Source: an uncultured Candidatus Saccharibacteria bacterium (lineage in GTDB: Bacteria; Patescibacteriota; Minisyncoccia; Phycocordibacterales; UBA9988). From it: a stretch of 64,000 nucleotides of DNA. A program made the position numbers and the translations under genes. Where the stretch lies: positions 112,975 through 176,974 of the forward strand of contig CAYNXC010000002.1 of the NCBI GenBank assembly GCA_964401135.1, in the 5' to 3' direction. The stretch's first letter is position 1, and each line of letters begins with the position of its first letter. The notes beneath the pieces were generated by a model. That model saw nothing but the letters and a program-made list of their open reading frames with translations, did no database searches and was not told the origin of the DNA. Positions 19,022 through 40,202 of the stretch are shown piece by piece.

Positions 19022-19095
19022 TGCCGAGTCGTCTAATGGTAGGACATCGCCCTTTGGAGGCGAGTATCTTGGTTCGAATCCAAGCTCGGCAGCCA
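19022..19095 (+). tRNA. tRNA-Gln(TTG): tRNA-Gln (anticodon TTG), CCA encoded; overlapped on opposite strand by the 3-prime end of the recombinase ORF
   Basis: acceptor tgccgag/ctcggca (U1-A72), anticodon stem tcgcc/ggcga loop ctTTGga, T-arm cttggttcgaatccaag, discriminator G + CCA. Confidence 0.8.
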
Positions 19096-20694: not shown

Positions 20695-20700
20695 AGTTGG

Positions 20701-21252
20701 TTATTGGTTATCTTTTTTGTTATTAAGATTTCCATCTCCATCAAGCATTCCCATTTCTTTATAAAACTTCATCCTGCCAGCCTCTGATAGACCCCAGGGA
20801 TTACCTGCTCGCGCTGCTAGTTCTTGCTTGCGCTTTGCTTCGTACTCCTCAAGAAACTTCATTGTCTCTTTCTCTTTTTCCCAACGCTCATTTAGTTTAG
20901 GGTGAGGAATATAAACAGATTTTCCTTGTCGTAATAGTTCAAGCTGTTCCTCAATTTTCCTTTCGTCCTCTCGTTGGTTGTAGAGATGTTGTCCTACGCT
21001 ACAGATTCCCCACACGAGAAGGAAAAGACGGTAGCTCGTATCAATCTTTGTGATTTCAATTCCAATAGTCCAATCAAGAGCTATGCTCAATAGGAAAAGT
21101 ATTCCGAAGGCATAAATGAATCCAAAGAATACGATTCCTAGAAGGTACGAGATGCTTTCCTTTATTTCTTTTAGTGTTGATTGTTCTTGCATACAAAAAG
21201 CGGCAGCCGAGGAGCCTGCTGCCCGTAGTAATGAATTGCACGAGGCAACCAT
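20701..21252 (-). CDS. hypothetical membrane protein of element (2-3 TM helices, charged C-terminal tail); start uncertain
   Basis: hydrophobic segments LLGIVFFGFIYAFGILFLLSIAL and RLFLLVWGICSV; no RBS evident at either candidate start. Confidence 0.45.
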   Translation of the reverse strand: MVASCNSLLRAAGSSAAAFCMQEQSTLKEIKESISYLLGIVFFGFIYAFGILFLLSIALDWTIGIEITKIDTSYRLFLLVWGICSVGQHLYNQREDERKIEEQLELLRQGKSVYIPHPKLNERWEKEKETMKFLEEYEAKRKQELAARAGNPWGLSEAGRMKFYKEMGMLDGDGNLNNKKDNQ

Positions 21253-21375
21253 TTACGGAGGTCTCGACTGCCGCTTTCAGTCCATAAATGGAGCCTGAAA
21301 AGGCAGAGACCTCGTACATATTTCATTACTACAGGCAGCGTACTAATTATAGCAAGGTGTACAATTGTGGCAAGT

Positions 21376-21600
21376 CTACCTTTTGTCCACAGCGTTAAGC
21401 GCATCAGCGATTGCAGCAATAATGTCGTGGATGATACTCTCACTCACTTTTTCGATTTCTTCTTTTGTTAAAGGTCTATCAAGATACGCTTCCGCCTGGT
21501 CTTGCAAGTCAGCTTCTGTAAGCTCGTAGATGGTACGTCCTTCGCCTATTGTGTTCATCTGATTTAGTTGGTTAAAGCTAATAATCTCCAGGGGGTGCAT
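21376..21600 (-). CDS. small acidic hypothetical protein of element
   Basis: 74-aa ORF co-oriented and abutting (3-nt gap) the primase-polymerase gene. Confidence 0.4.
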   Translation of the reverse strand: MHPLEIISFNQLNQMNTIGEGRTIYELTEADLQDQAEAYLDRPLTKEEIEKVSESIIHDIIAAIADALNAVDKR

Positions 21601-21602
21601 TT

Positions 21603-23324: not shown

Positions 23325-23326
23325 AA

Positions 23327-23596
23327 TTATTTAATCTTCTTGCTCTTTTCAGCCCAACCACATACGAAGCCTGCCAAGAAGGATGTATCAACCAGGCTTT
23401 TCACATTCAGAAAAGAAATGGGCATACCACCAATTGCATCTGATTTAGCCAGGTTTGTTTGACTGAAATTGGAGAACTCTCGCCACATCTGCTGTTTTAT
23501 TCCCAAGAGTTTTTCTGCTCTTTTTGCGTTGTGTTCGGCTGCGTTGATGACTTGATGCGGGAACTTATTTAAGAACTTTTTAGTAAACTTTTTCAT
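23327..23596 (-). CDS. hypothetical small protein of element
   Basis: ORF only, co-oriented in operon-like array. Confidence 0.35.
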   Translation of the reverse strand: MKKFTKKFLNKFPHQVINAAEHNAKRAEKLLGIKQQMWREFSNFSQTNLAKSDAIGGMPISFLNVKSLVDTSFLAGFVCGWAEKSKKIK

Positions 23597-23603
23597 ATCT
23601 CAA

Positions 23604-23783
23604 TTAGCTATTTTTATTTACCTCCTCGTTTTTAATGCGAAGCTCAATCCTTGCGAGCGTCAGGTAGTAGTCCATTGCTGCTTCCAGCAACTTCTTCACA
23701 TCCTCATCGGGTATACCCGTGAACGCTCCGAGCTTGTCGAAAGGTTTGCGTAGCCGTGCAATTTGTTCGGGTCTCAATTGCAT
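23604..23783 (-). CDS. hypothetical 59-aa protein (below ORF-track cutoff)
   Basis: in-frame ATG..TAA MQLRPEQIARLRKPFDKL..., fills gap between co-oriented genes; not otherwise supported. Confidence 0.25.
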   Translation of the reverse strand: MQLRPEQIARLRKPFDKLGAFTGIPDEDVKKLLEAAMDYYLTLARIELRIKNEEVNKNS

Positions 23784-23785
23784 AG

Positions 23786-24055
23786 CTACTTCTCCGCATA
23801 GAGGCGGTTCTTAAGTTGGCGGAAATTATGGAACAGACTTTGGATGGGGACTTCAATTGTTTTGTCTCCCCAGAAGTCGCTGATAGCTGTTTCAATTCCT
23901 TCCGTCGCGGCAAACACAAAGTCCATCCTCTTGTCGCTTGTACGCTCCAAACCGACCAATTTGAATTGGAGCGTGAGCAGCGTTGCTGCCAAGCCAATAT
24001 CACTGATGAATACTTTTTGCTCTGTGCTTGCCATACTCTGATTCTTGCAAGCCAA
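23786..24055 (-). CDS. hypothetical small protein of element (strand choice tentative; alternative + ORF 23816-24067)
   Basis: co-orientation with flanking minus-strand genes. Confidence 0.3.
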   Translation of the reverse strand: MACKNQSMASTEQKVFISDIGLAATLLTLQFKLVGLERTSDKRMDFVFAATEGIETAISDFWGDKTIEVPIQSLFHNFRQLKNRLYAEK

Positions 24056-24163
24056 GTCCGTACCTAGATATCTCCATAGATACTTTCCAAAAGAGAAAAC
24101 ACTCCCAGAAATGAGAGTGTCTTTTTTACTTGTCCACAGTAGCTATTGAGTACCTATGGGTAC

Positions 24164-24871
24164 CTATCCGATTTTGATGATTTCTATCCGAGGGTTGAGT
24201 CTGTAGCCGCTCCCTTGTTTCGCTTCAATGAGTTTGAGTGAACCTTTTAAGTCCAGCTCGTCAGCAGTTGCTTTATTGAGCTTTCCAAACTCATTGCGCA
24301 ATCGTGCCGATGTCATATCAAGTTCTGATGCCATATCCTGCGTACTTAACTCGTAGTCAGCATTAGGATTGTCAATAAGATATTTGAAAACTTTGAAAGG
24401 CGCTCCATTTCGTGCCATAGAGTATGATTTTTCTTTCGTGTCCTTGAAAACAATCCCTTCGTCTTTGTAGTACAGAACCAATTTGTCTATTGGTGTTTGA
24501 GTAGAGACAACAGACTTTTGCTTATTCACAAATGCCGCAATCTTCTTCGGGTCAATCGTTATACGCCACGCGGTTTCTATGGAGTCGAGCATTTCCTCGT
24601 CGTTTTTTCGCCAGTTTTCTATATCTGCCTCTGATATCTCGTTGAAGTGCCATTCATTTTCTCCGCTCGTTCGCTCCATTTGTCCTTTGCATTGTTCGTG
24701 ATTGCTTACGCCGTGTTTGGATAGAAGCGAAAATCCCAGCATTAAATCGTGCAAGGTAATACCTTTCGCATCAAACATTTTTGTCGGTACATACACGACA
24801 CTTTTTTCTTTATTAAAATCTACACGCGAGTAGTCGTGAATGACTTTTGCGATATCCATCTCCATTGCCAT
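24164..24871 (-). CDS. hypothetical protein of element, possible C-terminal DNA-binding domain
   Basis: 235-aa ORF divergent from xis-like gene; no firm motif. Confidence 0.4.
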   Translation of the reverse strand: MAMEMDIAKVIHDYSRVDFNKEKSVVYVPTKMFDAKGITLHDLMLGFSLLSKHGVSNHEQCKGQMERTSGENEWHFNEISEADIENWRKNDEEMLDSIETAWRITIDPKKIAAFVNKQKSVVSTQTPIDKLVLYYKDEGIVFKDTKEKSYSMARNGAPFKVFKYLIDNPNADYELSTQDMASELDMTSARLRNEFGKLNKATADELDLKGSLKLIEAKQGSGYRLNPRIEIIKIG

Positions 24872-24938
24872 TTATCCAGTTTACCACAACTGGACACATT
24901 TGCTCATAGGCTTACATCGTAGTATTATGAGTATACCT

Positions 24939-25151
24939 ATGAAGAAAAGTAAGGAGGAGCAATTTTTGACTCTTCAAGAGGTCGCCAAGCGCTTGCGGGT
25001 TAGCGAGCGTTCGGTGTTTCGATATATTCACGACGGAAAGATTGAAGCCACGAAAGTGGGCTACTGGCGCATCACTGAAAGTGCTTTGGCAAAGTTTTTG
25101 AAAGACCGCTCCAATCTGAACAAGTCGCCGCGTAAGAAGTCGAAAAAGTAA
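24939..25151 (+). CDS. xis: excisionase-family HTH DNA-binding protein (MerR/Xis-like HTH_17); start at MKKSKEEQ
   Basis: LTLQEVAKRLRVSERSVFRYIHDGKIEATKVGYWRI matches excisionase/HTH_17 pattern. Confidence 0.7.
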   Translation: MKKSKEEQFLTLQEVAKRLRVSERSVFRYIHDGKIEATKVGYWRITESALAKFLKDRSNLNKSPRKKSKK

Positions 25152-25176
25152 CCTCGTTTTTTGAAATGGAAATGTA

Positions 25177-27687
25177 ATGCAAAAAGAAGCCAAAGCCAGA
25201 ATCAAAATAAACAACCTACTACAGCAATCTGGCTGGAGGTTTTTCGATGATGAGAACGGCAAGGCAAACATCACCCTTGAGCTTAATACCAAACTTACGA
25301 ACAAAGATATCAATGATATCGGCGAAAACTTTGAGAACACAAAGAACGGTTTTGTAGACTTCCTTCTGCTCGACGATAAGGGCTTTCCGTACGTTGTTCT
25401 TGAGGCAAAGTCCGAGGACAAAGACCCTCTTGATGGTAAAGAGCAGGCACGTCGCTATGCGCAGTCTCTGAACGTCCGCTTTGTTATCCTTTCAAACGGG
25501 AACCTCCACTACTTCTGGGACTTGGAGCGCGGCAATCCATCCATCATTATCCAATTCCCAACACCTGAATCTCTACAACATTTTGAGCAGTTCAAACCGA
25601 ATCCTAAACAACTTGCCGAGGAAAAAGTTTCTAACGATTACATAGTTCTTACCCAGAAAGCGGAGTACCAAAATGACCCGCGCTGGATAGACGAAGCACA
25701 GCGAGATGATTTCGTGTACGCGGAGTCGCTCAAGTTCTTGCGCCCGTATCAGCTTCGTGCGGTTCAGTCTCTCCAAGAAGCTGCTACTGCTGGTAATGAC
25801 CGTTATCTTTTTGAGATGGCAACGGGTACGGGTAAAACACTCGTGTCTGCTGCTGTTATCAAACTCTTTCTCAAGTCTGGTAATGCAAAGCGCATCCTCT
25901 TTCTTGTAGACCGTTTGGAACTTGAAGACCAAGCCGCAAAGAGTTTTAAGAAACTACTCTCGAAGGATTACACAACTGTTATCTACAAGGAGAGCAAGGA
26001 CGATTGGCGTAAGGCAGAGATTGTTGTCTCAACAGTGCAAAGTCTATCTTTCAATAACAAATACCAGCGACTCTTTTCTCCAACTGACTTCGACCTCATT
26101 ATCTCTGACGAAGCCCATCGTTCAATAGGCGGAAACAGCCGTGCGGTTTTCGAGTATTTTGTTGGCTACAAGCTCGGACTTACAGCAACACCAAAAAATT
26201 ATCTCAAGGGCATTGACCCAGATAAACTCAACTCAAAAGACCCTCGTGCGTGGGAACGCCGACAACTTCTTGATACCTACAAGACTTTTGGTTGCGAGAG
26301 CGGAGAACCTACATTCCGATACACACTCCTCGATGGCGTGAAAGATGGATATCTCATCAACCCTGTTGTTGCTGATGCTCGTACAGAGATTACGACAGAG
26401 CTTCTTTCAGAGAAGGGATATTCTCTGATGGTTGAAAGTGAAGATGGTAAAGAGGAGGAACAGGTCTTCTTTCATACTGATTTCGAGCGTAAGTTTTTCT
26501 CCGACAAGACCAATCAGATTTTGTGCAAAACATTCTTGGAAAACGCACTCAAAGACCCGATTACGGGTGAAATAGGAAAAGGTATCGTTTTCTGTGTGAG
26601 CCAGAAGCACGCCTCAAAAATTACCCAGACGCTCAATCAGTTTGCAGACCAGCTTTATCCAGGAAAGTACAACTCCGATTTTGCGGTGCAGATTACTTCC
26701 AACATTCCGAACGCACAGGAATATACCATCAACTTTGCGAACAATAACCTTAATGGCTATACGAAGTTCCTGGATGGCTATCGTTCCAGCAAGACACGCG
26801 TCTGCGTAACGGTAGGAATGATGACAACAGGATATGACTGCGAAGATATCCTGAATGTGGCACTGATGCGCCCTATATTCTCTCCAACAGATTTCATTCA
26901 GATAAAGGGACGCGGTACACGTAAGTTTTCGTTTGTGCACCAGGAAAAAGAAGGTGGCGAGATACAAGAAGCAAAGATACCAAAAGACAAGTTCAAGCTG
27001 TTCGATTTCTTTGCGAACTGTGAATACTTCGAGGACAAATATAACTACGATGAGGTTTTGGTTCTTCCAACCATCGGCACGGGCACAGGTGGTGGTGATG
27101 GTGTGAATATAGACGAAGTATCAATCACACAGCACGACCCACTCAAGACGTTTACTGAAAAAGCGGTTGGTATGGATGGAATGAAGATTGACCGCAAGCT
27201 ATTTGAGAAGTTTGAGGCGGCAATCAAAGAAGACCCATTCATCAAACAGAAATACGAAGAAGGCGACCTTGCTTCCATCGAAAATTACGTAAAAGAAAAT
27301 ATCTTCGATAAGCCAGAGGAATGGTTTAGTCTCGATAAGCTCCGCAAGTCTGTCAAAGCTGACCGTCGCATCAGCATCCGTGAGTTCATTGCCAAAGCGT
27401 TTGGAGGCATCACCAGGTTCAAGTCAAAGGATGAATTGCTTGAAGATGAGTTTGAGCAATTTGTCGCTATCAACAAACCAGACAGCCAATACGTAATGCC
27501 AATCAAGAATTATTTGAAGGCATACATCACTGATAACGAAATTAGAGACATTATCGAGAAAGGAGAATATACGCGCTTGGCAACCAACCCCAAGCTCACG
27601 TTTGCTGACCTCCAAGAGCTAAATGGTTGGATTGAACGCGTGCCAGAATACGTGAAGGACTACGTATCTCTTAACGCTTATATGTAA
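25177..27687 (+). CDS. hsdR: Type I restriction enzyme R subunit
   Basis: HsdR_N nuclease motif VDFLLLDDKG...VVLEAKSE, SF2 helicase motifs ATGTGKT (I), DEAHR (II), C-terminal helical region. Confidence 0.9.
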   Translation: MQKEAKARIKINNLLQQSGWRFFDDENGKANITLELNTKLTNKDINDIGENFENTKNGFVDFLLLDDKGFPYVVLEAKSEDKDPLDGKEQARRYAQSLNVRFVILSNGNLHYFWDLERGNPSIIIQFPTPESLQHFEQFKPNPKQLAEEKVSNDYIVLTQKAEYQNDPRWIDEAQRDDFVYAESLKFLRPYQLRAVQSLQEAATAGNDRYLFEMATGTGKTLVSAAVIKLFLKSGNAKRILFLVDRLELEDQAAKSFKKLLSKDYTTVIYKESKDDWRKAEIVVSTVQSLSFNNKYQRLFSPTDFDLIISDEAHRSIGGNSRAVFEYFVGYKLGLTATPKNYLKGIDPDKLNSKDPRAWERRQLLDTYKTFGCESGEPTFRYTLLDGVKDGYLINPVVADARTEITTELLSEKGYSLMVESEDGKEEEQVFFHTDFERKFFSDKTNQILCKTFLENALKDPITGEIGKGIVFCVSQKHASKITQTLNQFADQLYPGKYNSDFAVQITSNIPNAQEYTINFANNNLNGYTKFLDGYRSSKTRVCVTVGMMTTGYDCEDILNVALMRPIFSPTDFIQIKGRGTRKFSFVHQEKEGGEIQEAKIPKDKFKLFDFFANCEYFEDKYNYDEVLVLPTIGTGTGGGDGVNIDEVSITQHDPLKTFTEKAVGMDGMKIDRKLFEKFEAAIKEDPFIKQKYEEGDLASIENYVKENIFDKPEEWFSLDKLRKSVKADRRISIREFIAKAFGGITRFKSKDELLEDEFEQFVAINKPDSQYVMPIKNYLKAYITDNEIRDIIEKGEYTRLATNPKLTFADLQELNGWIERVPEYVKDYVSLNAYM

Positions 27688-27689
27688 TT

Positions 27690-30113
27690 ATGCTTACCGC
27701 AGAAACAAAAAGAAAAATTGATAATGCGCGAGATATCCTCGTAGGAAAAGTGCCAGACCCGAAGGCGCAGGTGGAGCAGATTACTACGGCGCTCATCTAT
27801 AAGTTTATGGATGATATGGATATGCACTCTGCCTCTCTCCCGAAAGGTAAAGCGCAATTCTTCACTAACGGTTTTGGAAAATATGCCTGGAGCAAACTGA
27901 TGGATGCGAAACTTGGTGGGCAAGAGCGTCTGAATCTTTACGAGGAAGCGATTAGAAAGATGTCTACTAATCCACACTTACCTCAACTTTTTCGTGATGT
28001 ATTTAAGGATGCTTATCTACCTTATCGAGACCCACAAACACTTAATCTTTTCTTGAAGGAGATAAACGATTTTGAATACGACCATAGCGAGAATCTTGGT
28101 GATGCGTTTGAATACCTACTTTCTGTACTTGGCTCTCAAGGTGAGGCTGGACAATTTCGCACACCACGCCACATCATTGATTTCATTGTTGAAGTGCTTG
28201 ACCCTAAAAAAGATGAAACCATCCTCGACCCAGCGTGTGGTACGGCAGGTTTTCTAATTTCTGCATATAAACACATACTCAAGGCAAATGAAAAAAAGCG
28301 ACTTACACCAGACGAAAAAAAGCGGCTAATGAGCAATTTGGCTGGATACGATATTTCACCAGATATGGTGAAGCTCTCTCTTGTGAATATGTATCTCCAC
28401 GGTTTTCCAAGTCCGAATATTCACGAATACGATACACTCACAAGCGATGAACGTTGGGACGAGCACTTTGACGTAATGATGGCGAATCCTCCTTTTATGA
28501 CTCCGAGGGGCGGTATCCGTCCTCATAAGCGATTTATGGTGCAAGCGAATCGTGCAGAAGTCTTGTTTGTTGATTACATAATGGAACATCTCAACAGCAA
28601 GGGGCGCGCAGGTATTATTGTTCCTGAAGGTGTTATTTTTCAATCTGCTGGTGCATATAAAGAGTTGAGGCGAGCGCTTGTGGCAGATGGATTGTATGCG
28701 GTTGTATCTTTACCTGCTGGTGTCTTTAATCCTTATGCGGGAGTGAAAACCAGTATCCTATTTTTTGATAACCAACTCTCAAAGTTATCCAAGGAAGTGC
28801 TTTTTATCAAAGTACTCAATGATGGTTTTAGTTTAGGTGCACAACGTAGACCAATAGATAAAAATGATTTACCACACGCTCTCAAGGTTTTGCAGGCGCA
28901 CAAAGAGGCAATACTCAATAAGAAAAGAAGCCCTCTCAAAAAAGAAAACCTGTTTGCTTGGACAATAAGTAAAAAGAAAATTGCTGAACGTGTTGATACT
29001 AACCTTGAGGGAGAGAGATACAAACCAGTAAAGTTTGCTGAAAGATTGAAGCATCCATTAGAGGAGTTGGGTAACATTATCGAACTCGATTTTGGAACGA
29101 GGATTACTCAAAAGAATAATACTGGCAGTCTATATCCTGTTTATGGTGGAGGCGGTGAAAGTTTTAGAACCGATGACTTCAACAGGCAGGATGAGGTAGT
29201 GATTTCGAGGTTTGCTATGTCAGAAAATTGTGCGCGAGTTGTGAAGGAAAAGTTTTTCCTAATGGACTCTGGTTTTACTTACTCAATCAAGGAAGAGTTT
29301 GCTGCTAGGGCGGATAAACAGTTCATAGATTACCTAATACTCAATATGCAGGAGCGTATCTATGCCTGTGGCAGAGGGCACGCCCAAAAGAATCTTGATA
29401 CCAAGGCTTTCAAAAAGTTACTCATTCCACTTCCAACACTTGAGGAACAGAAACAAATTATTTCTGAATTAGATAGCTACCAAAAAGTGGTTGATGGTGC
29501 GAATCAAGTAATTGAACACCACAAACCATCAATTCAAATTAGCGAGTCTTGGGAACGAGCAGAACTAGGTGATATTGCCAAGATGGAGTATGGATACACA
29601 GAAACAGCAAAGATTAAGGGAGATGCTCGTTTTGTCCGTATAACAGATATCAGTAACGAAGGACACCTAAAGTCGGAAGGTGCGAAGTACGTAAACCTTA
29701 CCAAAGAGGCAAAGGCATACTTACTCAAGCGCGGGGATGTTCTTGTTGCCCGTACTGGTGCAACGTATGGCAAAACTATGATTTTCAATGAAGAATATCC
29801 AGCAGTATTTGCTTCGTTTCTTATTCGCCTCAATTTCGATACCAAAAAGATTCTCCCAGAATACTATTGGGCATTTGCTCAAACCACTGATTACTGGAAT
29901 CAAGCAAGGGCGTTAGTAACAGGCGGTGTGCAGCCGCAGTTCAATGGTAATGCAATGAAACATCTTTCTATTCCACTACCAAGTTTAGAAGTCCAAGAGC
30001 AAATTATTGCTCAAGTGAAAAATGAACAAGCACACGCTTCATCTGCGATGAAAATGGTTGAGATTTATGGAGATAAGATTAAAAATAAAATTGCCGAAAT
30101 ATGGGGCGAATAA
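27690..30113 (+). CDS. hsdMS: fused Type I R-M methyltransferase-specificity protein (HsdM ~470 aa + HsdS with two target-recognition domains)
   Basis: HsdM N-terminal domain, SAM motif DPACGTAGFL, catalytic NPPF; C-terminal two TRD blocks each ending in HsdS conserved spacer LPLPTLEEQKQI / LPLPSLEVQEQI; uninterrupted 807-aa frame. Confidence 0.85.
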   Translation: MLTAETKRKIDNARDILVGKVPDPKAQVEQITTALIYKFMDDMDMHSASLPKGKAQFFTNGFGKYAWSKLMDAKLGGQERLNLYEEAIRKMSTNPHLPQLFRDVFKDAYLPYRDPQTLNLFLKEINDFEYDHSENLGDAFEYLLSVLGSQGEAGQFRTPRHIIDFIVEVLDPKKDETILDPACGTAGFLISAYKHILKANEKKRLTPDEKKRLMSNLAGYDISPDMVKLSLVNMYLHGFPSPNIHEYDTLTSDERWDEHFDVMMANPPFMTPRGGIRPHKRFMVQANRAEVLFVDYIMEHLNSKGRAGIIVPEGVIFQSAGAYKELRRALVADGLYAVVSLPAGVFNPYAGVKTSILFFDNQLSKLSKEVLFIKVLNDGFSLGAQRRPIDKNDLPHALKVLQAHKEAILNKKRSPLKKENLFAWTISKKKIAERVDTNLEGERYKPVKFAERLKHPLEELGNIIELDFGTRITQKNNTGSLYPVYGGGGESFRTDDFNRQDEVVISRFAMSENCARVVKEKFFLMDSGFTYSIKEEFAARADKQFIDYLILNMQERIYACGRGHAQKNLDTKAFKKLLIPLPTLEEQKQIISELDSYQKVVDGANQVIEHHKPSIQISESWERAELGDIAKMEYGYTETAKIKGDARFVRITDISNEGHLKSEGAKYVNLTKEAKAYLLKRGDVLVARTGATYGKTMIFNEEYPAVFASFLIRLNFDTKKILPEYYWAFAQTTDYWNQARALVTGGVQPQFNGNAMKHLSIPLPSLEVQEQIIAQVKNEQAHASSAMKMVEIYGDKIKNKIAEIWGE

Positions 30114-31459
30114 CCAAGAACATTATGAACCTCACCACTGAACAAAAGAAGGAACTGGAATCTTACTTGACGACATATCGAGACGTGCCAATTGTCGAGA
30201 ATGACGGTATGCAAGAATCATACGCATCCTTTGATGATAAGCGTGTTGCTGCAACAGTTGAGATAAAGAAGCTGGTTGATGATTTTCTGCGCGGCGGTCT
30301 TTCTGTTGCCGAGTTCAAGGAACAAAGCGATGCAATGAGTCGCAAGTTTTCATATTGGGGGTTCAAAGGTTTTAGCGGACAGATGCAGCTCAACCAGTAC
30401 GCAAACAATATCGAAGACGCAGAACAAGAGCAGCGTCTTAAGGAAGCTATTGCATTGCCCGCAACTCTCGATGAGGCGGTAGCGAAAATAAACACTTTCG
30501 CGGAGTATATGCGGGAGCTGAAAACAAAAACCGATAATCCCAAGAGTATCCCGCGTATCAACCAGTCTTTTATGCTCTCGTACTTCTGGGAGATGCAAAG
30601 CCCTGAACTCTATCCTGTGTACTTCGGTTCAATGAAGAACGTGTTGGAAAACCTGGGCTTTGACTTCAAGAGCCAAGAGACACCAGGAGACGAGTACCGA
30701 TACTTTGCAGAGATTTGCTACGCAGTTCGTGAGTTCTTTGAACAGAGCGGAATGCAGGAAACACACCCGATATGGTACGTCGAACACGTTATCTGGCACT
30801 ACTTCAAAAAGCAGAATACGGAGATTGAGACAGAGGTAAAACAAGCAGTGCCAAGCAAAATCAGAATCGGAAAAACACCAGAAGAAAGTTGGACACCACC
30901 TATCATTGGCGACCTTGAACAATTGGCGCTCAATCAAGAAACCGAATGGTCAAAATTGCGTGGGCTAAAACCTGAAAAAGCGTTTGAGACCAAGCTACGT
31001 TATCTGTTTACCATTCTTGGATACAACACCACCGAGCTTGGACAAGGTAGAGGCAGAGAGCCAGACGGTATTACTATCTCCAATGACGGTAACGCTGGCT
31101 ATTACGCCATCATCTACGATGCAAAAGCACGAGAAAAGGATTACTCAATCGGTACACAAGACCGAGAGATTGTTGAATACATCAAAAACAAACAGCGTGA
31201 GTTGCAGCGCCAGCGCGTTGATAAGGTTTCTTTCTTGATTGTTTCTTCGGAGTTCACTAACAGTCCTTCACTTGAAAACTCACTCAAAGACATCTACCGA
31301 GCAACGCGAGTACCAGTGATTCTCGTACGGGCAAAAGACCTGTTGCGTATCGTCGAGCGCAAACTATCGAATGCAGATATAGACCACGTGCAGCTCGAAG
31401 ACCTGTTCCTTGAGACAGGCGTACTCACCGCAGATAAAATTGTGGACGTACTTGGATAA
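30101..31459 (+). CDS. hypothetical protein with C-terminal Mrr-like PD-(D/E)xK restriction-endonuclease fold and unrecognised ~280-aa N-terminal domain; overlaps hsdMS stop (alternative start 30125)
   Basis: C-terminal ILGYNTTELGQGRGREPDGITIS...YAIIYDAKAREK fits Mrr_cat PD...(D/E)xK pattern; N-terminal region has no recognisable motif. Confidence 0.6.
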   Translation: MGRITKNIMNLTTEQKKELESYLTTYRDVPIVENDGMQESYASFDDKRVAATVEIKKLVDDFLRGGLSVAEFKEQSDAMSRKFSYWGFKGFSGQMQLNQYANNIEDAEQEQRLKEAIALPATLDEAVAKINTFAEYMRELKTKTDNPKSIPRINQSFMLSYFWEMQSPELYPVYFGSMKNVLENLGFDFKSQETPGDEYRYFAEICYAVREFFEQSGMQETHPIWYVEHVIWHYFKKQNTEIETEVKQAVPSKIRIGKTPEESWTPPIIGDLEQLALNQETEWSKLRGLKPEKAFETKLRYLFTILGYNTTELGQGRGREPDGITISNDGNAGYYAIIYDAKAREKDYSIGTQDREIVEYIKNKQRELQRQRVDKVSFLIVSSEFTNSPSLENSLKDIYRATRVPVILVRAKDLLRIVERKLSNADIDHVQLEDLFLETGVLTADKIVDVLG

Positions 31460-31460
31460 T

Positions 31461-32273
31461 ATGAAAAAGAAAACCGCCATCATACTCATAGTTGTTGCCG
31501 CTATCATCGCCTTCATCGCGGGGGCGTGGGTTTTTATGGGCGACTATTACGAAGCTGATGAGACTGCGTACATTCCTGAAAGTTGCAACGTGCTTGCGTT
31601 CGCCGTCAACGGTTATCTTGCTACATACACCAGCGACACCACAGCAGAAGAACTCGAAATGGATGCTGTTTCGTCGTGGAATATCGCCGATGGCATCCGC
31701 CACGCAAAAGATTACCCGAACGTCAAAGCAATCCTACTTTCCGTTGATTCAAGTGGCGGAGACCCCACCACTGGTGAAGAGATAGCAAACGCTCTCAAAG
31801 CCCTAGAATTGCCTTCTGTAGCGGTTATCCGAAGCATCGGAGCATCTGCTGCATATTGGGCTGCTACAGGAGCGGATACAGTCTTTGCATCTCGTGTTTC
31901 TGATGTTGGCAGTATCGGCGTTACCGCTTCTTATCTTGATGAGACCGTTAAGAATGCAAAGGATGGCTACACACTTGTAGAACTATCATCAGCACCACAC
32001 AAAGATGCGGGTAGCCCGAACCGCGCTCTCACTGCGACAGAAAAAGCAGCTATCGTTTCCGACCTCAAGAAGATACACGAAGTATTTGTTGATGATGTTG
32101 CTGCGAATCGAAACCTTGAACGTGAGAAAGTGGCACAGCTTGCGAACGGACTCACCTATCTCGGCGTTGACGCGCTTGAGTACGGCTTGGTAGATAAACT
32201 CGGCGACTTCACTGCCGCCACTGACTACATCGCAGAACAGATTGGCGAGCCAGTGGAGTTGTGTTGGTACTAG
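31461..32273 (+). CDS. sppA: signal peptide peptidase SppA-like (S49 / ClpP-fold) with N-terminal TM anchor
   Basis: TM helix AIILIVVAAIIAFIAG, S49 core ILLSVDSSGGDP...VIRSIGASAAYWAA. Confidence 0.75.
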   Translation: MKKKTAIILIVVAAIIAFIAGAWVFMGDYYEADETAYIPESCNVLAFAVNGYLATYTSDTTAEELEMDAVSSWNIADGIRHAKDYPNVKAILLSVDSSGGDPTTGEEIANALKALELPSVAVIRSIGASAAYWAATGADTVFASRVSDVGSIGVTASYLDETVKNAKDGYTLVELSSAPHKDAGSPNRALTATEKAAIVSDLKKIHEVFVDDVAANRNLEREKVAQLANGLTYLGVDALEYGLVDKLGDFTAATDYIAEQIGEPVELCWY

Positions 32274-32280
32274 AAATAAA

Positions 32281-32790
32281 ATGAATTGGCGTGAGAAGGT
32301 ACTAAAGAAACATAAGAAAGAAATTATCCTGTCGGCAGCGTTCGCTCTTACGCTTGCACTGGCAACTGCACTTTGGCACTACTTCACAGGAAAGAGTTTT
32401 GAGTGGCAGTCCATCACTCCGATAGAGCAGCCAGGACTGTTGCCGCGTCTCTTTTACAGCGCACTCGTCTTTGCTGTGCCTGGTTGGTTTCTGTACCACA
32501 AGCTCAAGTTTTGGAAGTTTCTATACGAACCTTATCGTGGAACTGGGCGGCGTGGTTATCGTGAGTATAAGAAACTCAAAGCCGCCATCTGGGGTCTCCT
32601 CATTCTTCTGATGTATTTTGTTATTGTGCCGTTTGTTGTAGATATTCTAAACACCATCATCTCGTTCTTCTTTAATCTCTACGTTCTCGTGCTGTATCTT
32701 GTCCCTTCACTTGCTATCTCGCTGCTTGTCTGTGGGGTTGGATTATTCATTTACAAAAAACACAATGCTCTCAAAAGAAGCACTCAATGA
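32281..32790 (+). CDS. hypothetical 4-TM membrane protein downstream of sppA
   Basis: four hydrophobic helices; basic loops; position analogous to small membrane partner genes of sppA operons. Confidence 0.5.
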   Translation: MNWREKVLKKHKKEIILSAAFALTLALATALWHYFTGKSFEWQSITPIEQPGLLPRLFYSALVFAVPGWFLYHKLKFWKFLYEPYRGTGRRGYREYKKLKAAIWGLLILLMYFVIVPFVVDILNTIISFFFNLYVLVLYLVPSLAISLLVCGVGLFIYKKHNALKRSTQ

Positions 32791-32950
32791 GTTCAAGAAA
32801 ATATGGCGGGAGGAGAAGGGTGAAGATGTATCCGACGAGCTTGCCGTTGAAGAAGCCATAAACCTCCTTACGTTGTTCAGCGCCATCTATCGCCCTGTGA
32901 AGCAGGAATGGGTAGATGAATACGACCGCACCCACAAGGTTAAAGAGTAA
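32765..32950 (+). CDS. hypothetical small protein (61 aa), last gene of element cargo array
   Basis: ORF overlapping the previous gene end by 26 nt; no motif. Confidence 0.3.
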   Translation: MLSKEALNEFKKIWREEKGEDVSDELAVEEAINLLTLFSAIYRPVKQEWVDEYDRTHKVKE

Positions 32951-33299
32951 TGCTCCCTAGATATTAGACTTTTGACCAAGAGTTTTTGGGTGAAAAAAGT
33001 GCGGGTGGAGAGGGTGTCCCCCGCGAAAGGAAAGGAGCGGAATGGAAAACTCCCACCACCCATTTCTGGATTTCGTACAAAACAACCCAAGATGAACGGG
33101 GTATACCCCTTTTGAGTGCTGTTTAGTCATCAATGCTATAGAAATGAGCACTAATGAACACACGGTAGGTACTAAAGTAAGAACAGGCAGAGGTATGGTG
33201 GGCACACTGTCCTTGTGTGGCATATCTACTACAGTGCTCGGACATATCTACCCCCTGTGCTATCTCACCACAGCCAATAACTGCTGCATCTGCTGTAGG

Positions 33300-33590
33300 G
33301 AAACGGTAGGATATGGGAATAGTTCAAGCCAGTTGATAGTTCGTAGTTCCTCCCGCCAAGCCAGCCACATTGTATGAATCGGAAAGGTTGCCTAGCCCGC
33401 TCGCTACTGGAGACCGTCGGGCCGGCCAAGCACGACCTTGCAAAGGTTGGACTCTGGCCACACGACGAACAGAGAGACGGGAAGTGCATGGATGGTACAG
33501 AGCTCTACGACCACCTCATTGTTCCAGCATAGGGTTCGAGATTTGAAACTATGGTCATGGCTTACGGAGTGAGGGAGCCGAGTAGGAAAG
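33300..33590 (+). ncRNA. candidate structured ncRNA, possibly a reduced RNase P RNA; coordinates and strand approximate
   Basis: ORF-poor GC-rich segment with ordered short matches to bacterial RNase P conserved regions: GGAAAGgttgcc, ccacacgacgAACAGAGAGac, cagcAUAGGGuUCgag, AUGGCUUAC; not verifiable without a covariance-model search. Confidence 0.25.
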
Positions 33591-33984
33591 AGGCAAGAGC
33601 TTTCTTTGCTTTCTCTGACGATCCGTGTTGCTTTGTAAACGCTTCGGTACCGTCCTTACCGCAAAGTCCAAGGATTGCGTCTTCTCCACCAGGGTGTTTA
33701 CTGATCCAGTCGGTGAGGTCGTACACATTTCCTCCTACAGCTGTGTAGCAGCTCGAAGTATCTGCATGCGCGGCTACATCTGCCATCGTAAAGATGACCC
33801 CGATATTAAGCTCATCCGCTACTTGGTCTGAGCTCGTTGCTACTTGTGTGCCTGGGGCACTATTTTGTCTATAGCTAATAAACGCAATTCCTCCGACGAC
33901 CAGCACTCCGGCAATATATAGATATAGTCTGTCCATATTCATATTTTTTTTATGCCAATGACTACTCGTAGCGCAGAGTGCCAA
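33562..33984 (-). CDS. cytochrome b5-like heme-binding domain protein with N-terminal TM anchor
   Basis: TM LYLYIAGVLVVGGIAFI; Cyt-b5 motif DLTDWISKHPGGEDAILGLCGKDGTEAF. Confidence 0.7.
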   Translation of the reverse strand: MALCATSSHWHKKNMNMDRLYLYIAGVLVVGGIAFISYRQNSAPGTQVATSSDQVADELNIGVIFTMADVAAHADTSSCYTAVGGNVYDLTDWISKHPGGEDAILGLCGKDGTEAFTKQHGSSEKAKKALASFLLGSLTP

Positions 33985-34208
33985 TCGGGTTTAAGCGAGT
34001 GGCGTGTCGCGCAGGATAGTAGTAAAAGATTATACCAATTACTGCAGAAATTCCAAATGCCAAAGCAATAGGGCCTCATGAGGCGGTCGTATGAAAAGGG
34101 AGCATCTTCTGTTCGGACTACTGCCAGTCCTCATGCAACAAGCACCCAAGTGAGTACGCTACTACTAAAATTATTGAATGCCTTAAAAAATAGACTATAA
34201 TAGGATGT

Positions 34209-34613
34209 ATGGAACAATTGCCACACAGAGAAGAGGCTCTTGAAGTTCCTGAAAAAGAAGACTCTGTGCGGTACGAGCTCCTTGCTCGTGCCGATGAAGC
34301 AGTTGCACAAGCCGTGCACGAACTTTCTGTACGCACAGAAGCAGAACTGGAGACCCTCACTCATTTTGAACTGAATGGACGGGAGTGGAAGATAGAGGAT
34401 GCAGACGATAGAGTCTTTGCAATGGAGTTGAGACTCTTGGAAGGGGTACGCGATATTGCGGATCGGGAGACTGATTACTATAGAAAGAAAGGGCTACTCA
34501 AGGTTTTTGAACTGCAACAGTCGCACATAGAGATACTCCGCCGTACGATAGAATTGAAGCGGGATTGGCCATTGGTAGCAGCGCAGATGGAAGGCAGAGA
34601 ACAAAACAGATGA
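34209..34613 (+). CDS. hypothetical acidic protein
   Basis: 134-aa ORF, ATGA overlap with downstream GH15-like gene. Confidence 0.4.
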   Translation: MEQLPHREEALEVPEKEDSVRYELLARADEAVAQAVHELSVRTEAELETLTHFELNGREWKIEDADDRVFAMELRLLEGVRDIADRETDYYRKKGLLKVFELQQSHIEILRRTIELKRDWPLVAAQMEGREQNR

Positions 34614-35644
34614 GTAGTACTGTAGATTCACATCTTACTGTAATTAAATCACTCCAGTCGCCATCGGGACTCTTTCTCGCGTCAGCACAAGAGGTCTCTA
34701 CCGGATACAACAAGGCGTGGCTCCGTGACAACTTTTATACCGCGCTTGCCTTTGAGTCAGTAGGAGATTGGGATACGGTGCAGCATACCTACCGCGCACT
34801 GCTTGATGTATTGAAAAAGCATGAGACAAAGATCTCATGGGTAGCACACAATAAGCCCTACGCGACATGGCAATACATCCATGCGCGCTATAATCCAGAA
34901 ACCTTTGAAGAATTTTGGGAAGAGTGGGGAAATAAGCAGAATGACGCTGTTGGAGCACTCTTGTACAAGTTTGGAGATTTGGAGACAAGCGGCCATGGTG
35001 TAGTAGAGACAGATGATGATAAGCGAATGCTGCAAAAATTGGTGGAGTATGCTGGCGCTATTGAGTATTGGCACGACCCTGACTCGGGGATGTGGGAGGA
35101 GAGAGAAGAAGTGCACGCTTCTTCTGTAGGGGCGATGCTCGCAGGTCTAGAGTCAGTAGCGCGACTTCCGTACATCACAGTGCCTCGTGAGTACATTAAA
35201 AGAGGCGGAGCTACTCTGGAAAAATTGTTACCTCGAGAGAGTAAAGATAAGTTTTGCGATCTTTCTTTGCTCTCACTCATCTGGCCATATCGGATTGTGA
35301 GTAGAGAAAATGCAGACAGTATTCTCCGCAATCTTGAATACCACCTAGAGAAGCGACACGGCGTGCTCCGTTACAAGACAGACCGCTACTATAACGCAAA
35401 TGAGGATGGTTGGAGTGAGGAAGCAGAGTGGACATTCGGATTCCCTTGGCTTGCCATCATCTACGCCGAGCGCGGAGATGGTGAAAGAGCACGAGAATAT
35501 TTCAGAAAGGCAGAGTCGGTTGTCACGAAAGATGGGCTTCTCCCCGAACTCTACTATAGTAACAGCGAGCGTTATAATGAGAATGTTCCACTCGCGTGGA
35601 GTGAGAGTCTCTATGTGGTGGCAAAGACTCTTGTCGGCACATAA
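34610..35644 (+). CDS. glycoside hydrolase family 15-like (glucoamylase-related) protein, catalytic (alpha/alpha)6 portion only
   Basis: GYNKAWLRDNFYTALAF and W..WEEREEVHASSVGAMLAGL segments typical of GH15. Confidence 0.6.
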   Translation: MSSTVDSHLTVIKSLQSPSGLFLASAQEVSTGYNKAWLRDNFYTALAFESVGDWDTVQHTYRALLDVLKKHETKISWVAHNKPYATWQYIHARYNPETFEEFWEEWGNKQNDAVGALLYKFGDLETSGHGVVETDDDKRMLQKLVEYAGAIEYWHDPDSGMWEEREEVHASSVGAMLAGLESVARLPYITVPREYIKRGGATLEKLLPRESKDKFCDLSLLSLIWPYRIVSRENADSILRNLEYHLEKRHGVLRYKTDRYYNANEDGWSEEAEWTFGFPWLAIIYAERGDGERAREYFRKAESVVTKDGLLPELYYSNSERYNENVPLAWSESLYVVAKTLVGT

Positions 35645-35694
35645 CACCGTGTGATATAGTCTCTCTGGTAAAGAACTTTTGAAAGGAGAGTGTT

Positions 35695-36174
35695 ATGGGG
35701 AGTACCTCACTGGAAACACTTGTGGCAGAAGATTTTTCTGCTGTAGGAAAACGTAGAGAAGAGAGTGAGCAGGAGTGCTTACGTATTCTGACCAACATTG
35801 TTACAGAGTTTAAGATGGACCAAAGGGTGATCGAGACTCTTACACCGCTCACACGTTCGGCGGAGTCAATGTTTTCAATCTTGTGTGTCTTGATAAAAGA
35901 CTCATCTGATACCGAGACAATGTCTCACAATCTCTGTGAGTGGTTCAACAGGCAATCAACACAAGTAAAAACATTTCCTCTGCGGATCCAAAATTTTAAG
36001 GTTCCTGCATACTATTTTGAATTGTTGCAAGACGATCCGGACGTAGAAGTACGAAAAGCCTTGGCAGATCATCCCTGTGTTCCACTCCCTCTTCTTCGAA
36101 AATTAAAAATGGACAGAGATCTTGCGGTACAAACGATTGCCGCGAGGAATACTGCCATTCCTGTACAGCGATAA
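35695..36174 (+). CDS. hypothetical protein with HEAT/PBS-lyase-like repeats
   Basis: DPDVEVRKALADHPCVPLPLLRKL...DLAVQTIAARN repeat pattern. Confidence 0.4.
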   Translation: MGSTSLETLVAEDFSAVGKRREESEQECLRILTNIVTEFKMDQRVIETLTPLTRSAESMFSILCVLIKDSSDTETMSHNLCEWFNRQSTQVKTFPLRIQNFKVPAYYFELLQDDPDVEVRKALADHPCVPLPLLRKLKMDRDLAVQTIAARNTAIPVQR

Positions 36175-36187
36175 TATGTACACCTCT

Positions 36188-36222
36188 ATCCGTCCGCCTC
36201 TCCCGCGGGCGGATTTCTTTTT
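36188..36222 (+). terminator. intrinsic terminator
   Basis: 10-bp stem atccgtccgc/gcgggcggat (one G-U) followed by ttcttttt. Confidence 0.6.
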
Positions 36223-36245
36223 GTTTGATATACTACATTACGCGT

Positions 36246-36833
36246 ATGTTTGATATGGTTGCTCTAATTGAGTGGGGAGGTTATGTGGGTCTCACAGTTA
36301 TTATCTTTGCCGAGAGTGGGCTCTTTTTTGGTTTCTTTCTACCAGGAGATAGCCTCCTCTTTACGGCAGGGTTTCTCGCTTCGCAGGGGTATTTGAATAT
36401 CTGGATCCTCGCTCCGCTTCTCTTTATTGCCGCTGTCACGGGAGACTCCGTTGGTTACGCTTTTGGTTACCGTGTTGGCCCCGCACTTTTTTCGCGGGCA
36501 GATTCCCGTTTTTTTAAAAAGGAATATCTTGTCCGTACCGAGCACTTTTTTGAGAAGTACGGATCGCGCGCAATTATCATTGCGCGCTTTATCCCAATCG
36601 TACGCACCTTCACCCCCATCCTTGCGGGAGTGGGGAAGATGCGCTACGCGACCTTTCTCTCCTTTAATATTATTGGAGCGGGTCTCTGGGCACTTGGGAT
36701 GACTTACCTAGGGTACTTTCTTGGGTCAGTCATTCAGGGGATTGATCAATACTTACTTCCGATAATTTTTGCCATTATCATTATCTCAGTACTACCTCCA
36801 TGTTATGAATATTGGAAGAGTCGTCGCACATAG
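36246..36833 (+). CDS. dedA: DedA-family membrane protein
   Basis: FAESGLFFGFFLPGDSLLFTAGFLA, ...RFIPIVRTFTPILAGVGKM motifs of DedA/SNARE-associated family. Confidence 0.8.
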   Translation: MFDMVALIEWGGYVGLTVIIFAESGLFFGFFLPGDSLLFTAGFLASQGYLNIWILAPLLFIAAVTGDSVGYAFGYRVGPALFSRADSRFFKKEYLVRTEHFFEKYGSRAIIIARFIPIVRTFTPILAGVGKMRYATFLSFNIIGAGLWALGMTYLGYFLGSVIQGIDQYLLPIIFAIIIISVLPPCYEYWKSRRT

Positions 36834-37263
36834 GGATTTGCTATTTCTATGGGGTCGTGGTAGAGTATTTTTCAGAATGTTCTTACTCGGGAGGTAACGA
36901 TAATGATCAGGTTTGGTGATGAGGATAAAGCTATTGGTCCGACTCATACAAAGAAGGCAGCTAGTTCAATGTTTATCACTCGTTCTGGGACGATACAGGT
37001 CTCTACGACTCAAGACGGAGTGCTCACGATTTCTGGTCCTGGAGTAAAGAAAGTCTTTGTACATTCATCTCATCGTACTGTCCCCATCATTCGCCGTATT
37101 GGATGATGGGGATTTGTTTTTGGATTCAATAGGTTATCAACAGTTTTGTTCTTGTAGGCTACTTTTCTCATTGCGTGTGACACACAATTCTCTACAATGG
37201 ATGTAAACACTCTCTGTTTAAGAGAAGGTCGAATATTAACCAATCGATCATCACATACATACT

Positions 37264-37311
37264 ATGGCAGCAAAGAAGAAGGCAAAGAAGGCAAAGAAGG
37301 GAAAGAAATAA
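37264..37311 (+). other. 15-codon Lys-rich mini-ORF (MAAKKKAKKAKKGKK) built on a tandem 9-nt repeat, followed by a strong hairpin (37323-37357)
   Basis: atg gca gca aag aag aag gca aag aag gca aag aag gga aag aaa taa; hairpin aaaaccccctctt/aagagagggggtttt. Confidence 0.2.
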
Positions 37312-37425
37312 GTTCTACTTCTAAAACCCCCTCTTTTTCAATAAGAGAGGGGGTTTTGCGTGCTTGCGCTTCTTCTTTTTTGGTGTAGAGTGGATGTATC
37401 ATCGGAAGCTTATCAGCCAGCATAT

Positions 37426-39097: not shown

Positions 39098-39122
39098 CAA
39101 GTATGGTATACTCTTATGATAT

Positions 39123-39425
39123 ATGAAAGGCTTCATCGAATTTATCCGTGAACAAGGAGTTGTGGGGTTAGCTGTTGGCTTTATTCTAGGAGGCGCAGTT
39201 TCTAAGGTAGTCTCGGCACTGGTGACCGATGTTATCAACCCACTCCTTGGGCTCGTTCTTGGGGCGGCAGGAGGGTTAAAGGATGTTGCTATCTCCGTCG
39301 GCTCCGCACGCATTCTCTATGGGGATCTCGTGAGTGTGGTGATTGATTTTCTTGTTATTGCGCTCGTGGTCTACTATGGCGTCAGACTACTCCGATTGGA
39401 CAAGTTGGATAAGAAAAAGGTATGA
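39123..39425 (+). CDS. mscL: large-conductance mechanosensitive channel
   Basis: FIREQGVVGLAVGFILGGAVSKVVSALVTDVINPLLG. Confidence 0.85.
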   Translation: MKGFIEFIREQGVVGLAVGFILGGAVSKVVSALVTDVINPLLGLVLGAAGGLKDVAISVGSARILYGDLVSVVIDFLVIALVVYYGVRLLRLDKLDKKKV

Positions 39426-39448
39426 TCGCAATCTCTACTCGAGCAAGC

Positions 39449-39478
39449 CTCGCCATGCCTCTTGTATGGCGGGTTTTT
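39449..39478 (+). terminator. intrinsic terminator after mscL
   Basis: hairpin cgccat-gcctcttgt-atggcg followed by ggttttta. Confidence 0.5.
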
Positions 39479-39503
39479 ATAAAGTGCTATACTATACATA
39501 TCT

Positions 39504-40202
39504 ATGGGATCGGCTCAACTTACAGAGCAAATACGAGTAGCGCTTGCTACTGGTAAACGCAAGGAGGAGATTTACCAAGAGCTACTCGCTCAAGGGACTA
39601 CTCTCACGGCAATTGAGGCAGGCTTTGACTCCCTTATACAAGAGACTGCAAAGAGCGACTCTCACAAGTGGGCGGTACGAGTGATCGTGAGCATAGGTGC
39701 GCTCTTGGTTGCTGCTGGCATCTTCTCCTTCGTAGCGGCCAACTGGCAGGAGATTGGGCGCATGGCCAAGGTTGGCATCGTGCTTACAGCGATGGCTGTC
39801 TCATACGGGCTCGGGTTCTATTTAAAAGAGTATCGCAGTTATGCCCGCTCTGGTGAGGCACTCATACTCCTTGGAGCTATTAGCTATGGCGCGGGGATCT
39901 TTCTTGTTGCACAACTCTTTCATGTGCAGGTTGAGTGGCCGGATGGTTTCCTACTCTGGATGCTCGGTACTCTGGCGATGGCCATTGCCATTGACTCCTA
40001 CCTTCTCTACTACTTAAGTCTACCGCTCGGATTCGCTGGATTGGTGGGGCTTCCTTCTATTATGTTTGAACTCTTTTGGTCGCGTGGCATCTCCGCTACT
40101 TTTATCTCGATATCCCTCCTTATCATCTCTGCCCTTTGTACCTTTGCTACTGGATGGATTATAAGGCGGAGAATGCCCGATGAATTAAAGCAACTCTACT
40201 AG
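39504..40202 (+). CDS. DUF2157-family integral membrane protein
   Basis: multi-TM architecture, first gene of conserved DUF2157/DUF4401/GDYXXLXY triad. Confidence 0.6.
   Translation: MGSAQLTEQIRVALATGKRKEEIYQELLAQGTTLTAIEAGFDSLIQETAKSDSHKWAVRVIVSIGALLVAAGIFSFVAANWQEIGRMAKVGIVLTAMAVSYGLGFYLKEYRSYARSGEALILLGAISYGAGIFLVAQLFHVQVEWPDGFLLWMLGTLAMAIAIDSYLLYYLSLPLGFAGLVGLPSIMFELFWSRGISATFISISLLIISALCTFATGWIIRRRMPDELKQLY

Follow-up and report, generated by a model that had tools for sequence, protein, structure and literature searches.

A 611-bp gap suspected of encoding a reduced RNase P-like RNA is very likely the right junction of an integrative element and probably holds the detached 3' end of its serine recombinase gene

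What occupies the 611 bp (32951 to 33561) that separate the stop of the last plus-strand open reading frame (ORF; ending at 32950) from the stop codon of a minus-strand cytochrome b5-like gene (cyt-b5; 33562 to 33564) in an uncultured Candidatus Saccharibacteria bacterium? The gap is located in a 64,000-nucleotide stretch of contig CAYNXC010000002.1 (here called the window, meaning the whole stretch of DNA that was analyzed), and an earlier note had described it as an ORF-free, structured region of ~600 bp, possibly encoding a reduced RNase P-like RNA, with the attR junction of a mobile element as the alternative. The gap between convergent gene ends and its location at the element boundary were both borne out, and the alternative turned out to be correct, since attR could be placed to the base, with its core CAGCCA at 33362 to 33367. 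The region is very likely a composite junction rather than an RNA gene; an element end that includes the detached tail of a recombinase, together with a 6-bp core and the stumps of two genes, explains all of it. The left 411 bp belong to an integrative element of 14,272 bp and make up its right-hand end; the right 194 bp (33368 to 33561) are old chromosomal sequence formerly downstream of tRNA-Gln(UUG). Thus, the gap itself is real, but it is not free of coding sequence, considering that three gene fragments lie inside it (the 3' end of the recombinase gene and parts of two chromosomal genes, here called gene X and doxX).

The boundaries of the element are defined by the following features.

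19022 to 19095, plus strand: tRNA-Gln(UUG), the integration target (ARAGORN; Rfam tRNA, 63 bits), intact after the insertion.
19090 to 19095: attL core CAGCCA, the 6 nt (CCA among them) with which the tRNA ends; at the junction, attL and attR have no other sequence in common with the empty site.
19096 to 33361: inserted integrative element, 14,272 bp with one core copy counted, missing from the empty-site contigs.
33362 to 33367: attR core CAGCCA; the homology of seven independent contigs starts exactly at 33362.

The 14,272-bp segment is an insertion, because four empty-site contigs (L048, L053, L064, and L066) join the 3' end of tRNA-Gln straight to window position 33362 and onward. For instance, L064 contains 204 bp equal to window positions 18900 to 19103 and then continues at once with 33362 to 36223. 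Two copies of the CAGCCA core flank the insertion, and a single copy occurs in the four empty-site contigs. The occupied form was recovered in an independent assembly (L044), which spans attR and is 100% identical to the window from 28209 to 36798, and the 134-aa protein encoded nearby (34209 to 34613) has an identical sequence on 21 public contigs. Moreover, the G+C content of the element (0.41 to 0.45 over 20 to 30 kb) is lower than that of its flanks. The empty site, attB, reads ...GCTCGG-CAGCCA-CATTGTATG..., and the attP junction reconstructed for the element circle reads ...CCGCCAAGC-CAGCCA-ATTTGCATC...; the window and a related element (L151) have conserved P and P' arms in common, and the P' arm is conserved also in another one (L148). 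The insertion was presumably catalyzed by the large serine recombinase (LSR) that the element encodes, and an excised circle presumably forms.

The occupancy of this site varies among strains. To the left of this core, contigs L059 and L060/L061 do not match the window, their flanks being 99 to 100% identical to it, and other elements therefore occupy the same attB. Together with L045, L046, and L050, these contigs revealed that the tRNA-Gln attB is empty in some strains and holds at least three different elements in others, with the tails AWREELRT, CLLEKVRT, and CLLNKIRT. Because attB is variably empty or occupied, public assemblies break exactly at the core. Among the sequencing runs with this strain, SRR10580904 has the occupied site, and SRR12404947, SRR11577119, and DRR774218 have the empty one.

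Two features on the minus strand are needed to describe the recombinase gene.

19033 to 20694, minus strand: LSR, integrated form, 553 aa (Pfam).
33260 to 33361, minus strand: probable detached 3' end of the LSR gene, 33 codons (AWREELRTINWLELFPYPTVSLQQMQQLLAVVR) plus stop, in frame only when the element is circular.

The LSR contains the Pfam domains Resolvase (1.9e-22), Recombinase (5e-15), and Zn_ribbon_recom (6.6e-4), the zinc ribbon scoring 20.4 bits, under the Pfam cutoff of 25.3. Its last 20 codons (19036 to 19095) and its stop (19033 to 19035) are the antisense strand of tRNA-Gln, and the core CAGCCA is itself the antisense of LSR Trp-Leu codons. The integrated ORF reads across attL and ends in ...NWL followed by PSLDSNQDTRLQRAMSYH and the stop. 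When the two element ends are joined as in a circle, the ORF becomes 568 aa long and ends in ...NWL followed by AWREELRTINWLELFPYPTVSLQQMQQLLAVVR, with the stop at 33260 to 33262. The same operation on the 10,605-bp element of L151, the recombinase of which is 58% identical to the LSR of the window, yields ...NWL followed by AWRDYVRTVRWEDMFPYPSVDLQQMQDLLTLAR, with the stop at the same position as in the window.

The tail is conserved. A hidden Markov model (HMM) of the tail was built from 10 intact homologues, excluding the window and L151, and was searched against 2381 six-frame fragments of the window; it produced a single match, on the minus strand from 33361 to 33266 (E = 4.5e-19), the next best having E = 0.34. 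Detached tails were likewise recovered from L149 (E = 1.3e-18) and from L151/L152 (E = 5.6e-16); each lies at the far end of its element, abuts the core, and is encoded on the LSR strand, and these two further elements have the same architecture as that of the window. A contiguous tail was present in 21 of the 120 best LSR homologues. The other homologue endings that were inspected mostly stop after [W/L]L or enter peptides such as DSNQD, which result when a tRNA T-arm is translated in antisense. Many proteins deposited for this clade (e.g., within P0121 to P0240) are truncated at the junction, with C termini that are translated tRNA antisense; because the C termini are tRNA antisense or junction stops, the annotated lengths of 512 to 583 aa reflect the insertion site and not the native protein.

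Because the ORF is continuous across the rebuilt attP and the tail HMM matches at attR, attP quite likely lies inside the LSR coding sequence, 33 codons before the stop, with attL and attR each holding part of the gene. Integration would cut the LSR gene, the body of which would stay at attL and gain a foreign 20-residue tail from the tRNA antisense strand. The true last 33 codons would end up 14 kb away at attR (33260 to 33361, minus strand), and the gene would regain its full 568 aa once the element is excised as a circle. It is highly improbable that the fragment at 33260 to 33361 is instead the remnant of a second, decayed recombinase gene or of a tandem element. In favor of such a remnant, attB is a hot spot, and at least two other element ends (WLCLLEKVRT... 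in L059 and WLCLLNKIRT... in L060) occur in near-identical strains. However, the fragment abuts the core exactly and on the LSR strand, no other recombinase remnant adjoins it, and the in-frame circular join gives an uninterrupted ORF up to the normal stop of the family. Three elements, those of the window, L151, and L149, show this independently.

The GTTCG arm at attR had also been considered as a displaced copy of the tRNA T-arm, and this candidate was rejected, as its antisense strand supplies the conserved Arg-Thr codons of the tail. Translation of the corresponding arms gives WLCLLEKVRT for L059 and WLCLLNKIRT for L060, the tails of other recombinases of the clade.

To the right of the core, the old chromosomal sequence contains two gene stumps and is followed by cyt-b5, as listed here.

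33374 to 33532, plus strand: 52-codon ORF, codons 1 to 48 of which (to 33517) are the 5' stump of gene X; holds GGAAAG and AACAGAGAG.
33518 to 33522: putative deletion junction at which the stumps of gene X and doxX meet tail to tail.
33523 to 33558, minus strand: first 12 codons of doxX (MTIVSNLEPYAG), the rest deleted; antisense of AUAGGGUUC and of part of AUGGCUUAC.
33562 to 33936, minus strand: cytochrome b5-like gene, 124 aa as called publicly (Pfam Cyt-b5, 3.9e-20).

In the closest relatives found (L054 to L057), cyt-b5 is 76% identical, and an intact doxX follows 3 nt after cyt-b5 (L054 and L057). The DNA alignment between the window and a relative extends through the cyt-b5 stop and 12 doxX codons (33558 to 33523, minus strand) and then ends. 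The exact protein of the cyt-b5 gene (P0001) was found on 25 contigs. On the opposite strand, a phmmer search of the gene X ORF against 1.84 billion proteins returned 10 nonself matches (E values of 1e-5 to 1e-3) to proteins of 144 to 296 aa, with 47 to 62% identity over ~37 to 41 aa, and a profile search recovered 376 members at an E value of ≤1e-5. These represent an uncharacterized family of ~150 to 250 aa, whose few named members belong to the candidate phyla radiation (CPR; Patescibacteria). No Pfam domain was detected among the 120 members listed, and neither the gene X members nor the small ORFs of the region belonged to a family in Pfam, PHROGs, or NCBIfam. The gene X of the window keeps the N-terminal conserved block, including the invariant H30, Q33, and G36, without the C-terminal half, and in tblastn its homology extends no further than 33517, five bases short of the doxX stump. 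The simplest explanation would be a single deletion that took the 3' parts of two convergent genes and left the two stumps.

A functional small protein encoded by the 52-codon ORF (33374 to 33532), that is, a shortened gene X, is unlikely. The ORF has an ATG and the most conserved motif of the family (VGPAxxDLxKVxLWxHDxQxxG), it is called by gene callers in public assemblies, and its sequence is identical in all strains. Nevertheless, the entire conserved C-terminal half (~100 aa) is missing, and the homology ends 5 nt from the opposite-strand doxX stump, as a deletion predicts. Moreover, neither phmmer nor the profile search found a similarly short homologue, and the identity among strains is uninformative because all of the flanking DNA is identical too. 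Another candidate, gene X as cargo of the element or as a relic of an older one, was rejected, as its members occur in ordinary chromosomal contexts and none occur in related elements. The two contexts examined (L158, 4623 to 5237; L160, 598 to 1368) were ordinary chromosomal ones, beside MurD and TyrRS.

Several further observations concern these genes and their surroundings. The conserved block of gene X reads VGPAEYDLxKVELWLHDxQKxGK (family proteins P0242 to P0368). Homologues of cyt-b5 are scattered among Actinomycetota and CPR bacteria, and a metagenome scan with DnaX for the tRNA-Gln flank of a relative retrieved only relatives at ≤53% identity. Contigs L064, L065, and L066 differ by 6 to 7% from the window in the GH15 gene and beyond (34614 to 36300) and are 100% identical to it over the relics, cyt-b5, and its upstream spacer. 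This sharp mosaic boundary near 34300 to 34600 suggests a recent recombination or transfer of the cyt-b5 segment.

Could the region nevertheless encode an RNA? The proposed reduced RNase P-like RNA, ~250 nt long at ~33380 to 33590 on the plus strand, was based on four short strings that resemble conserved regions in the correct order, namely, GGAAAG at 33381, CCACACGACGAACAGAGAGAC at 33458, ATAGGGTTC at 33529, and ATGGCTTAC at 33557. These strings are indeed present, as are the two quoted from the GC-rich hairpin (GGGTGGAGAGGGTGTCCCCCGCG at 33003 and CTCCCACCACCC at 33050), but as evidence of RNase P they do not rise above chance: GGAAAG occurs 16 times on the plus strand of the window, and there is no covariance score. 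All four are located within or directly beside the two gene stumps, as codons or antisense of the gene X stump, doxX, and the cyt-b5 stop. GGAAAG at 33381 corresponds to codons 3 to 5 of the gene X stump (R-K-G) and CCACACGACGAACAGAGAGAC to codons 29 to 36 (P-H-D-E-Q-R-D-G), with family-invariant residues among them; ATAGGGTTC is the stop codon of the relic ORF plus the antisense of doxX E-P-Y, and ATGGCTTAC covers, in antisense, the start codon of doxX, the spacer of 3 nt, and the stop of cyt-b5. Across the whole window, cmscan with 4227 Rfam families at gathering thresholds detected seven tRNAs only. From 32700 to 33900 on both strands, with permissive filters and an E value of ≤10, the sole match was a chance one to a mammalian long noncoding RNA model (E = 6.8), and nothing was found for the bacterial type A and B, archaeal, nuclear, and type T RNase P RNAs (RF00010, RF00011, RF00373, RF00009, and RF02357) or for tmRNA, 6S RNA, and signal recognition particle RNA. 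In addition, the closest relatives (with cyt-b5 76% identical) carry an intact doxX here and no such spacer. The likeness to bacterial RNase P RNA (RF00010/RF00011) thus consists of four short ordered strings, each explained by a coding remnant, with neither a covariance score nor a fold signal behind them. For the stable core fold typical of this RNA, in which CR-I and CR-V form the P4 pseudoknot, the fold z-scores of -0.14 to -1.83 give no support. As far as sequence analysis goes, the RNase P reading is refuted, and we regard it as virtually impossible.

The description of the region as structured was not supported either. The whole region folds like its dinucleotide shuffles, at -187 kcal/mol versus a shuffle mean of -185.9 on the plus strand (z = -0.15) and with z = +0.40 on the minus strand. 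Local folds in five sub-windows on both strands gave z-scores from -0.1 to -1.8; the supposed RNase P span (33440 to 33585) had z = -0.14, the quoted GC-rich hairpin had z = -1.1 (plus) and -1.8 (minus), and the best local signal was that of 33368 to 33500 on the plus strand (z = -1.83). Some other small RNA or regulatory structure, either in the element end (32951 to 33259) or in the old chromosomal spacer, is therefore very unlikely, considering that all of the fold z-scores range between -0.1 and -1.8. Such a structure might be sought in the imperfect GC-rich hairpin at 33003 to 33061 (-25.8 kcal/mol on the plus strand and -27.1 on the minus strand), in a 133-nt imperfect hairpin in 33368 to 33500 (-45.5 kcal/mol, with 9 of 200 shuffles folding as well), or at one terminator-like site on the minus strand (33057 to 33036). 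However, the spacer hairpin falls inside a coding stump, the two terminators found compare with 1.4 expected from shuffles, and the element end is unlike its L151 counterpart outside the recombinase tail. There are also no repeats or iterons, the search of 32700 to 33900 having returned short chance pairs only, and the counts of the promoter and terminator scan match the shuffle expectation. A comparison of the spacer with 43 genome loci carrying cyt-b5 homologues detected no conservation, these homologues being too distant and not syntenic.

Several points weigh against a composite junction with an LSR gene split at attP. In other bacteria, large mobile regions include homologues whose tail is contiguous, and some contiguous-tail homologues lie within large chromosomal contigs. 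IMG/VR, searched for exact copies of the attP or circle junction, returned zero matches, the dyad symmetry of the reconstructed attB and attP was not above that of shuffles, and the 6-bp core is short, so that the crossover dinucleotide is not assignable. Furthermore, the strains are 100% identical over 33362 to ~34300, which leaves no variation by which to ask whether the stumps are constrained or to rule out a small RNA. Regarding the first of these points, the tail is ancestral in this clade, some members of which are unsplit, because contiguous-tail homologues occur (L153 to L157); the split is therefore a property of the tRNA-targeting subgroup. The contiguous-tail homologues of L153 to L157 (P0178 and P0184) are located in larger mobile regions with ArdC, N6 methylase, and TrwB-like proteins, and the regions of L156 and L157 additionally carry a tyrosine integrase.

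The remaining features of the element are as follows.

21603 to 23324, minus strand: Prim-Pol/PriCT_1/AAA_25 primase-helicase, the replication module (Pfam).
24927 to 25151, plus strand: HTH_17 excisionase-like small DNA-binding protein, a candidate directionality factor (Pfam HTH_17, 2.9e-13).
25177 to 31459, plus strand: restriction-modification cargo, consisting of an HsdR-like helicase, an N6_Mtase plus Methylase_S fusion, and a FokI-cleavage-domain protein (Pfam).
32732 to 32950, plus strand: last called cargo ORF, 72 aa, of no family (called in L044; no Pfam match).
32951 to 33259: noncoding right end, 309 bp from the cargo stop to the circular-form LSR stop (no gene called in L044).

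After the LSR gene, the element encodes a 183-aa protein (20701 to 21252), the primase-helicase, small proteins including DUF5659, a 235-aa protein, and HTH_17; the cargo on the opposite strand also includes an S49 peptidase, a membrane protein, and the 72-aa ORF. More than 1000 homologues of the LSR were found, the few with a source name being mostly from Patescibacteria (CPR). HTH_17, the ~230-aa protein, DUF5659, and the LSR have the same positions in the window, L148, L149/L150, and L151/L152, and the cargo differs. A primase-helicase is located between these shared backbone genes in the window, L148, and L149/L150. The module is the same in L149/L150, whereas L148 has a Toprim primase instead, and no domain-bearing primase was detected at the corresponding position of L151/L152. 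In both L148 and L151, the 3' end of the LSR gene overlaps tRNA-Gln(UUG). The target tRNA of L149 (11612 to 11910, minus strand) is missed by ARAGORN because a group I intron interrupts it (RF00028, 89.9 bits, E = 1.8e-23). The restriction-modification cargo is unusual in its make-up, as the HsdR-like helicase and the HsdM-HsdS fusion are combined with a separate 452-aa protein that has a FokI-type cleavage domain; in L151, the helicase and fusion genes are both present, but the third gene is a different one.

The 309-bp right end is probably a spacer between converging transcription units, with terminators. The imperfect GC-rich hairpin at 33003 to 33061 and the hairpin GGGGTATACCCC-TTTT at 33098 to 33113, neither of them beyond chance, are possible terminators. 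An 88-aa minus-strand ORF (32957 to 33223) had no match in PHROGs, and 32951 to 33259 had no similarity to the end of the L151 element. Contrary to the earlier note, the gap is not the only long stretch of the window lacking an ORF, as other gaps of ≥400 bp exist at a 110-aa threshold, for example, 23324 to 24164 (which holds small genes), 36833 to 37360, and 39098 to 39504. In the second of these, a 34-nt stretch of contigs L046, L047, and L049 matches window positions 37356 to 37323 in reverse, which points either to an inverted repeat or to inversion of a small segment.

Most of the region is ordinary, consisting of a mobile-element junction and gene debris, and its interest lies in the split LSR gene. 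Base-exact attL, attR, and attB sites and a reconstructed attP are now available for an LSR of the little-studied CPR bacteria, and natural populations have yielded documented examples of this one site when occupied, when empty, and when filled by other elements. The exchange of tails may alter the activity of the enzyme. By analogy, it is conceivable, if rather doubtful, that this exchange is a built-in switch common to a large clade of CPR (Patescibacteria) serine-recombinase elements. In that case, only the excised circle would encode the full-length enzyme, with the conserved tail AWRxxLRTxxWxxxFPYPxVSLQQxxxLL, and the integrated copy, with a junk tail from the tRNA antisense strand, would have altered activity or directionality, stabilizing integration, as in IntP/IntX of Mx8. 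If true, such a functional switch would be the first case for serine integrases. Serine integrases are important tools of genome engineering, and the control of their directionality is being actively studied, a question on which a natural design with swapped tails would provide a new handle.

How does this element compare with known systems? The attB and attP sites of serine integrases are typically ~40 to 50 bp long, with imperfect inverted-repeat half-sites around a central dinucleotide. The LSR of the window has the same three domains (Resolvase, Recombinase, and zinc ribbon) as the integrases of phiC31, Bxb1, A118, and SPbeta, and the insertion is likewise a simple one with few identical crossover bases. 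As in phiC31-type elements, a small helix-turn-helix protein is encoded that is a possible directionality factor. In contrast to these elements, a tRNA gene is targeted here at its very 3' end, attP appears to lie in the LSR gene, whose last 33 codons would be removed upon integration, and the dyad symmetry of the att sites is not demonstrable. A limited literature search, which is no proof of novelty, found no serine recombinase with attP in its own gene and no such CPR elements. Within the limits of that search, split or retailed integrases are known for tyrosine integrases (Mx8 and SSV1), and the serine case is without a precedent found; the element falls outside the Mx8 and SSV integrase families because its enzyme is a serine recombinase. 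SSV viruses, which are archaeal fuselloviruses, also target tRNA genes, and their integrase gene is split into two large parts. In SSV-type integrases, int is interrupted upon integration, with the att site within the gene (PMC5861418). By comparison, the SSV enzyme is an archaeal tyrosine recombinase, and in the window only a 33-codon tail would be exchanged. In the myxophage Mx8 (IntP/IntX), attP is located within the int coding sequence, and the recombinant gene formed by integration has a new 3' end, through which the integrase is changed but not destroyed (PMC6070905). Thus, the element of the window would share the logic of Mx8, an attP inside the integrase gene, while superfamily and chemistry differ, tyrosine in Mx8 versus serine here.

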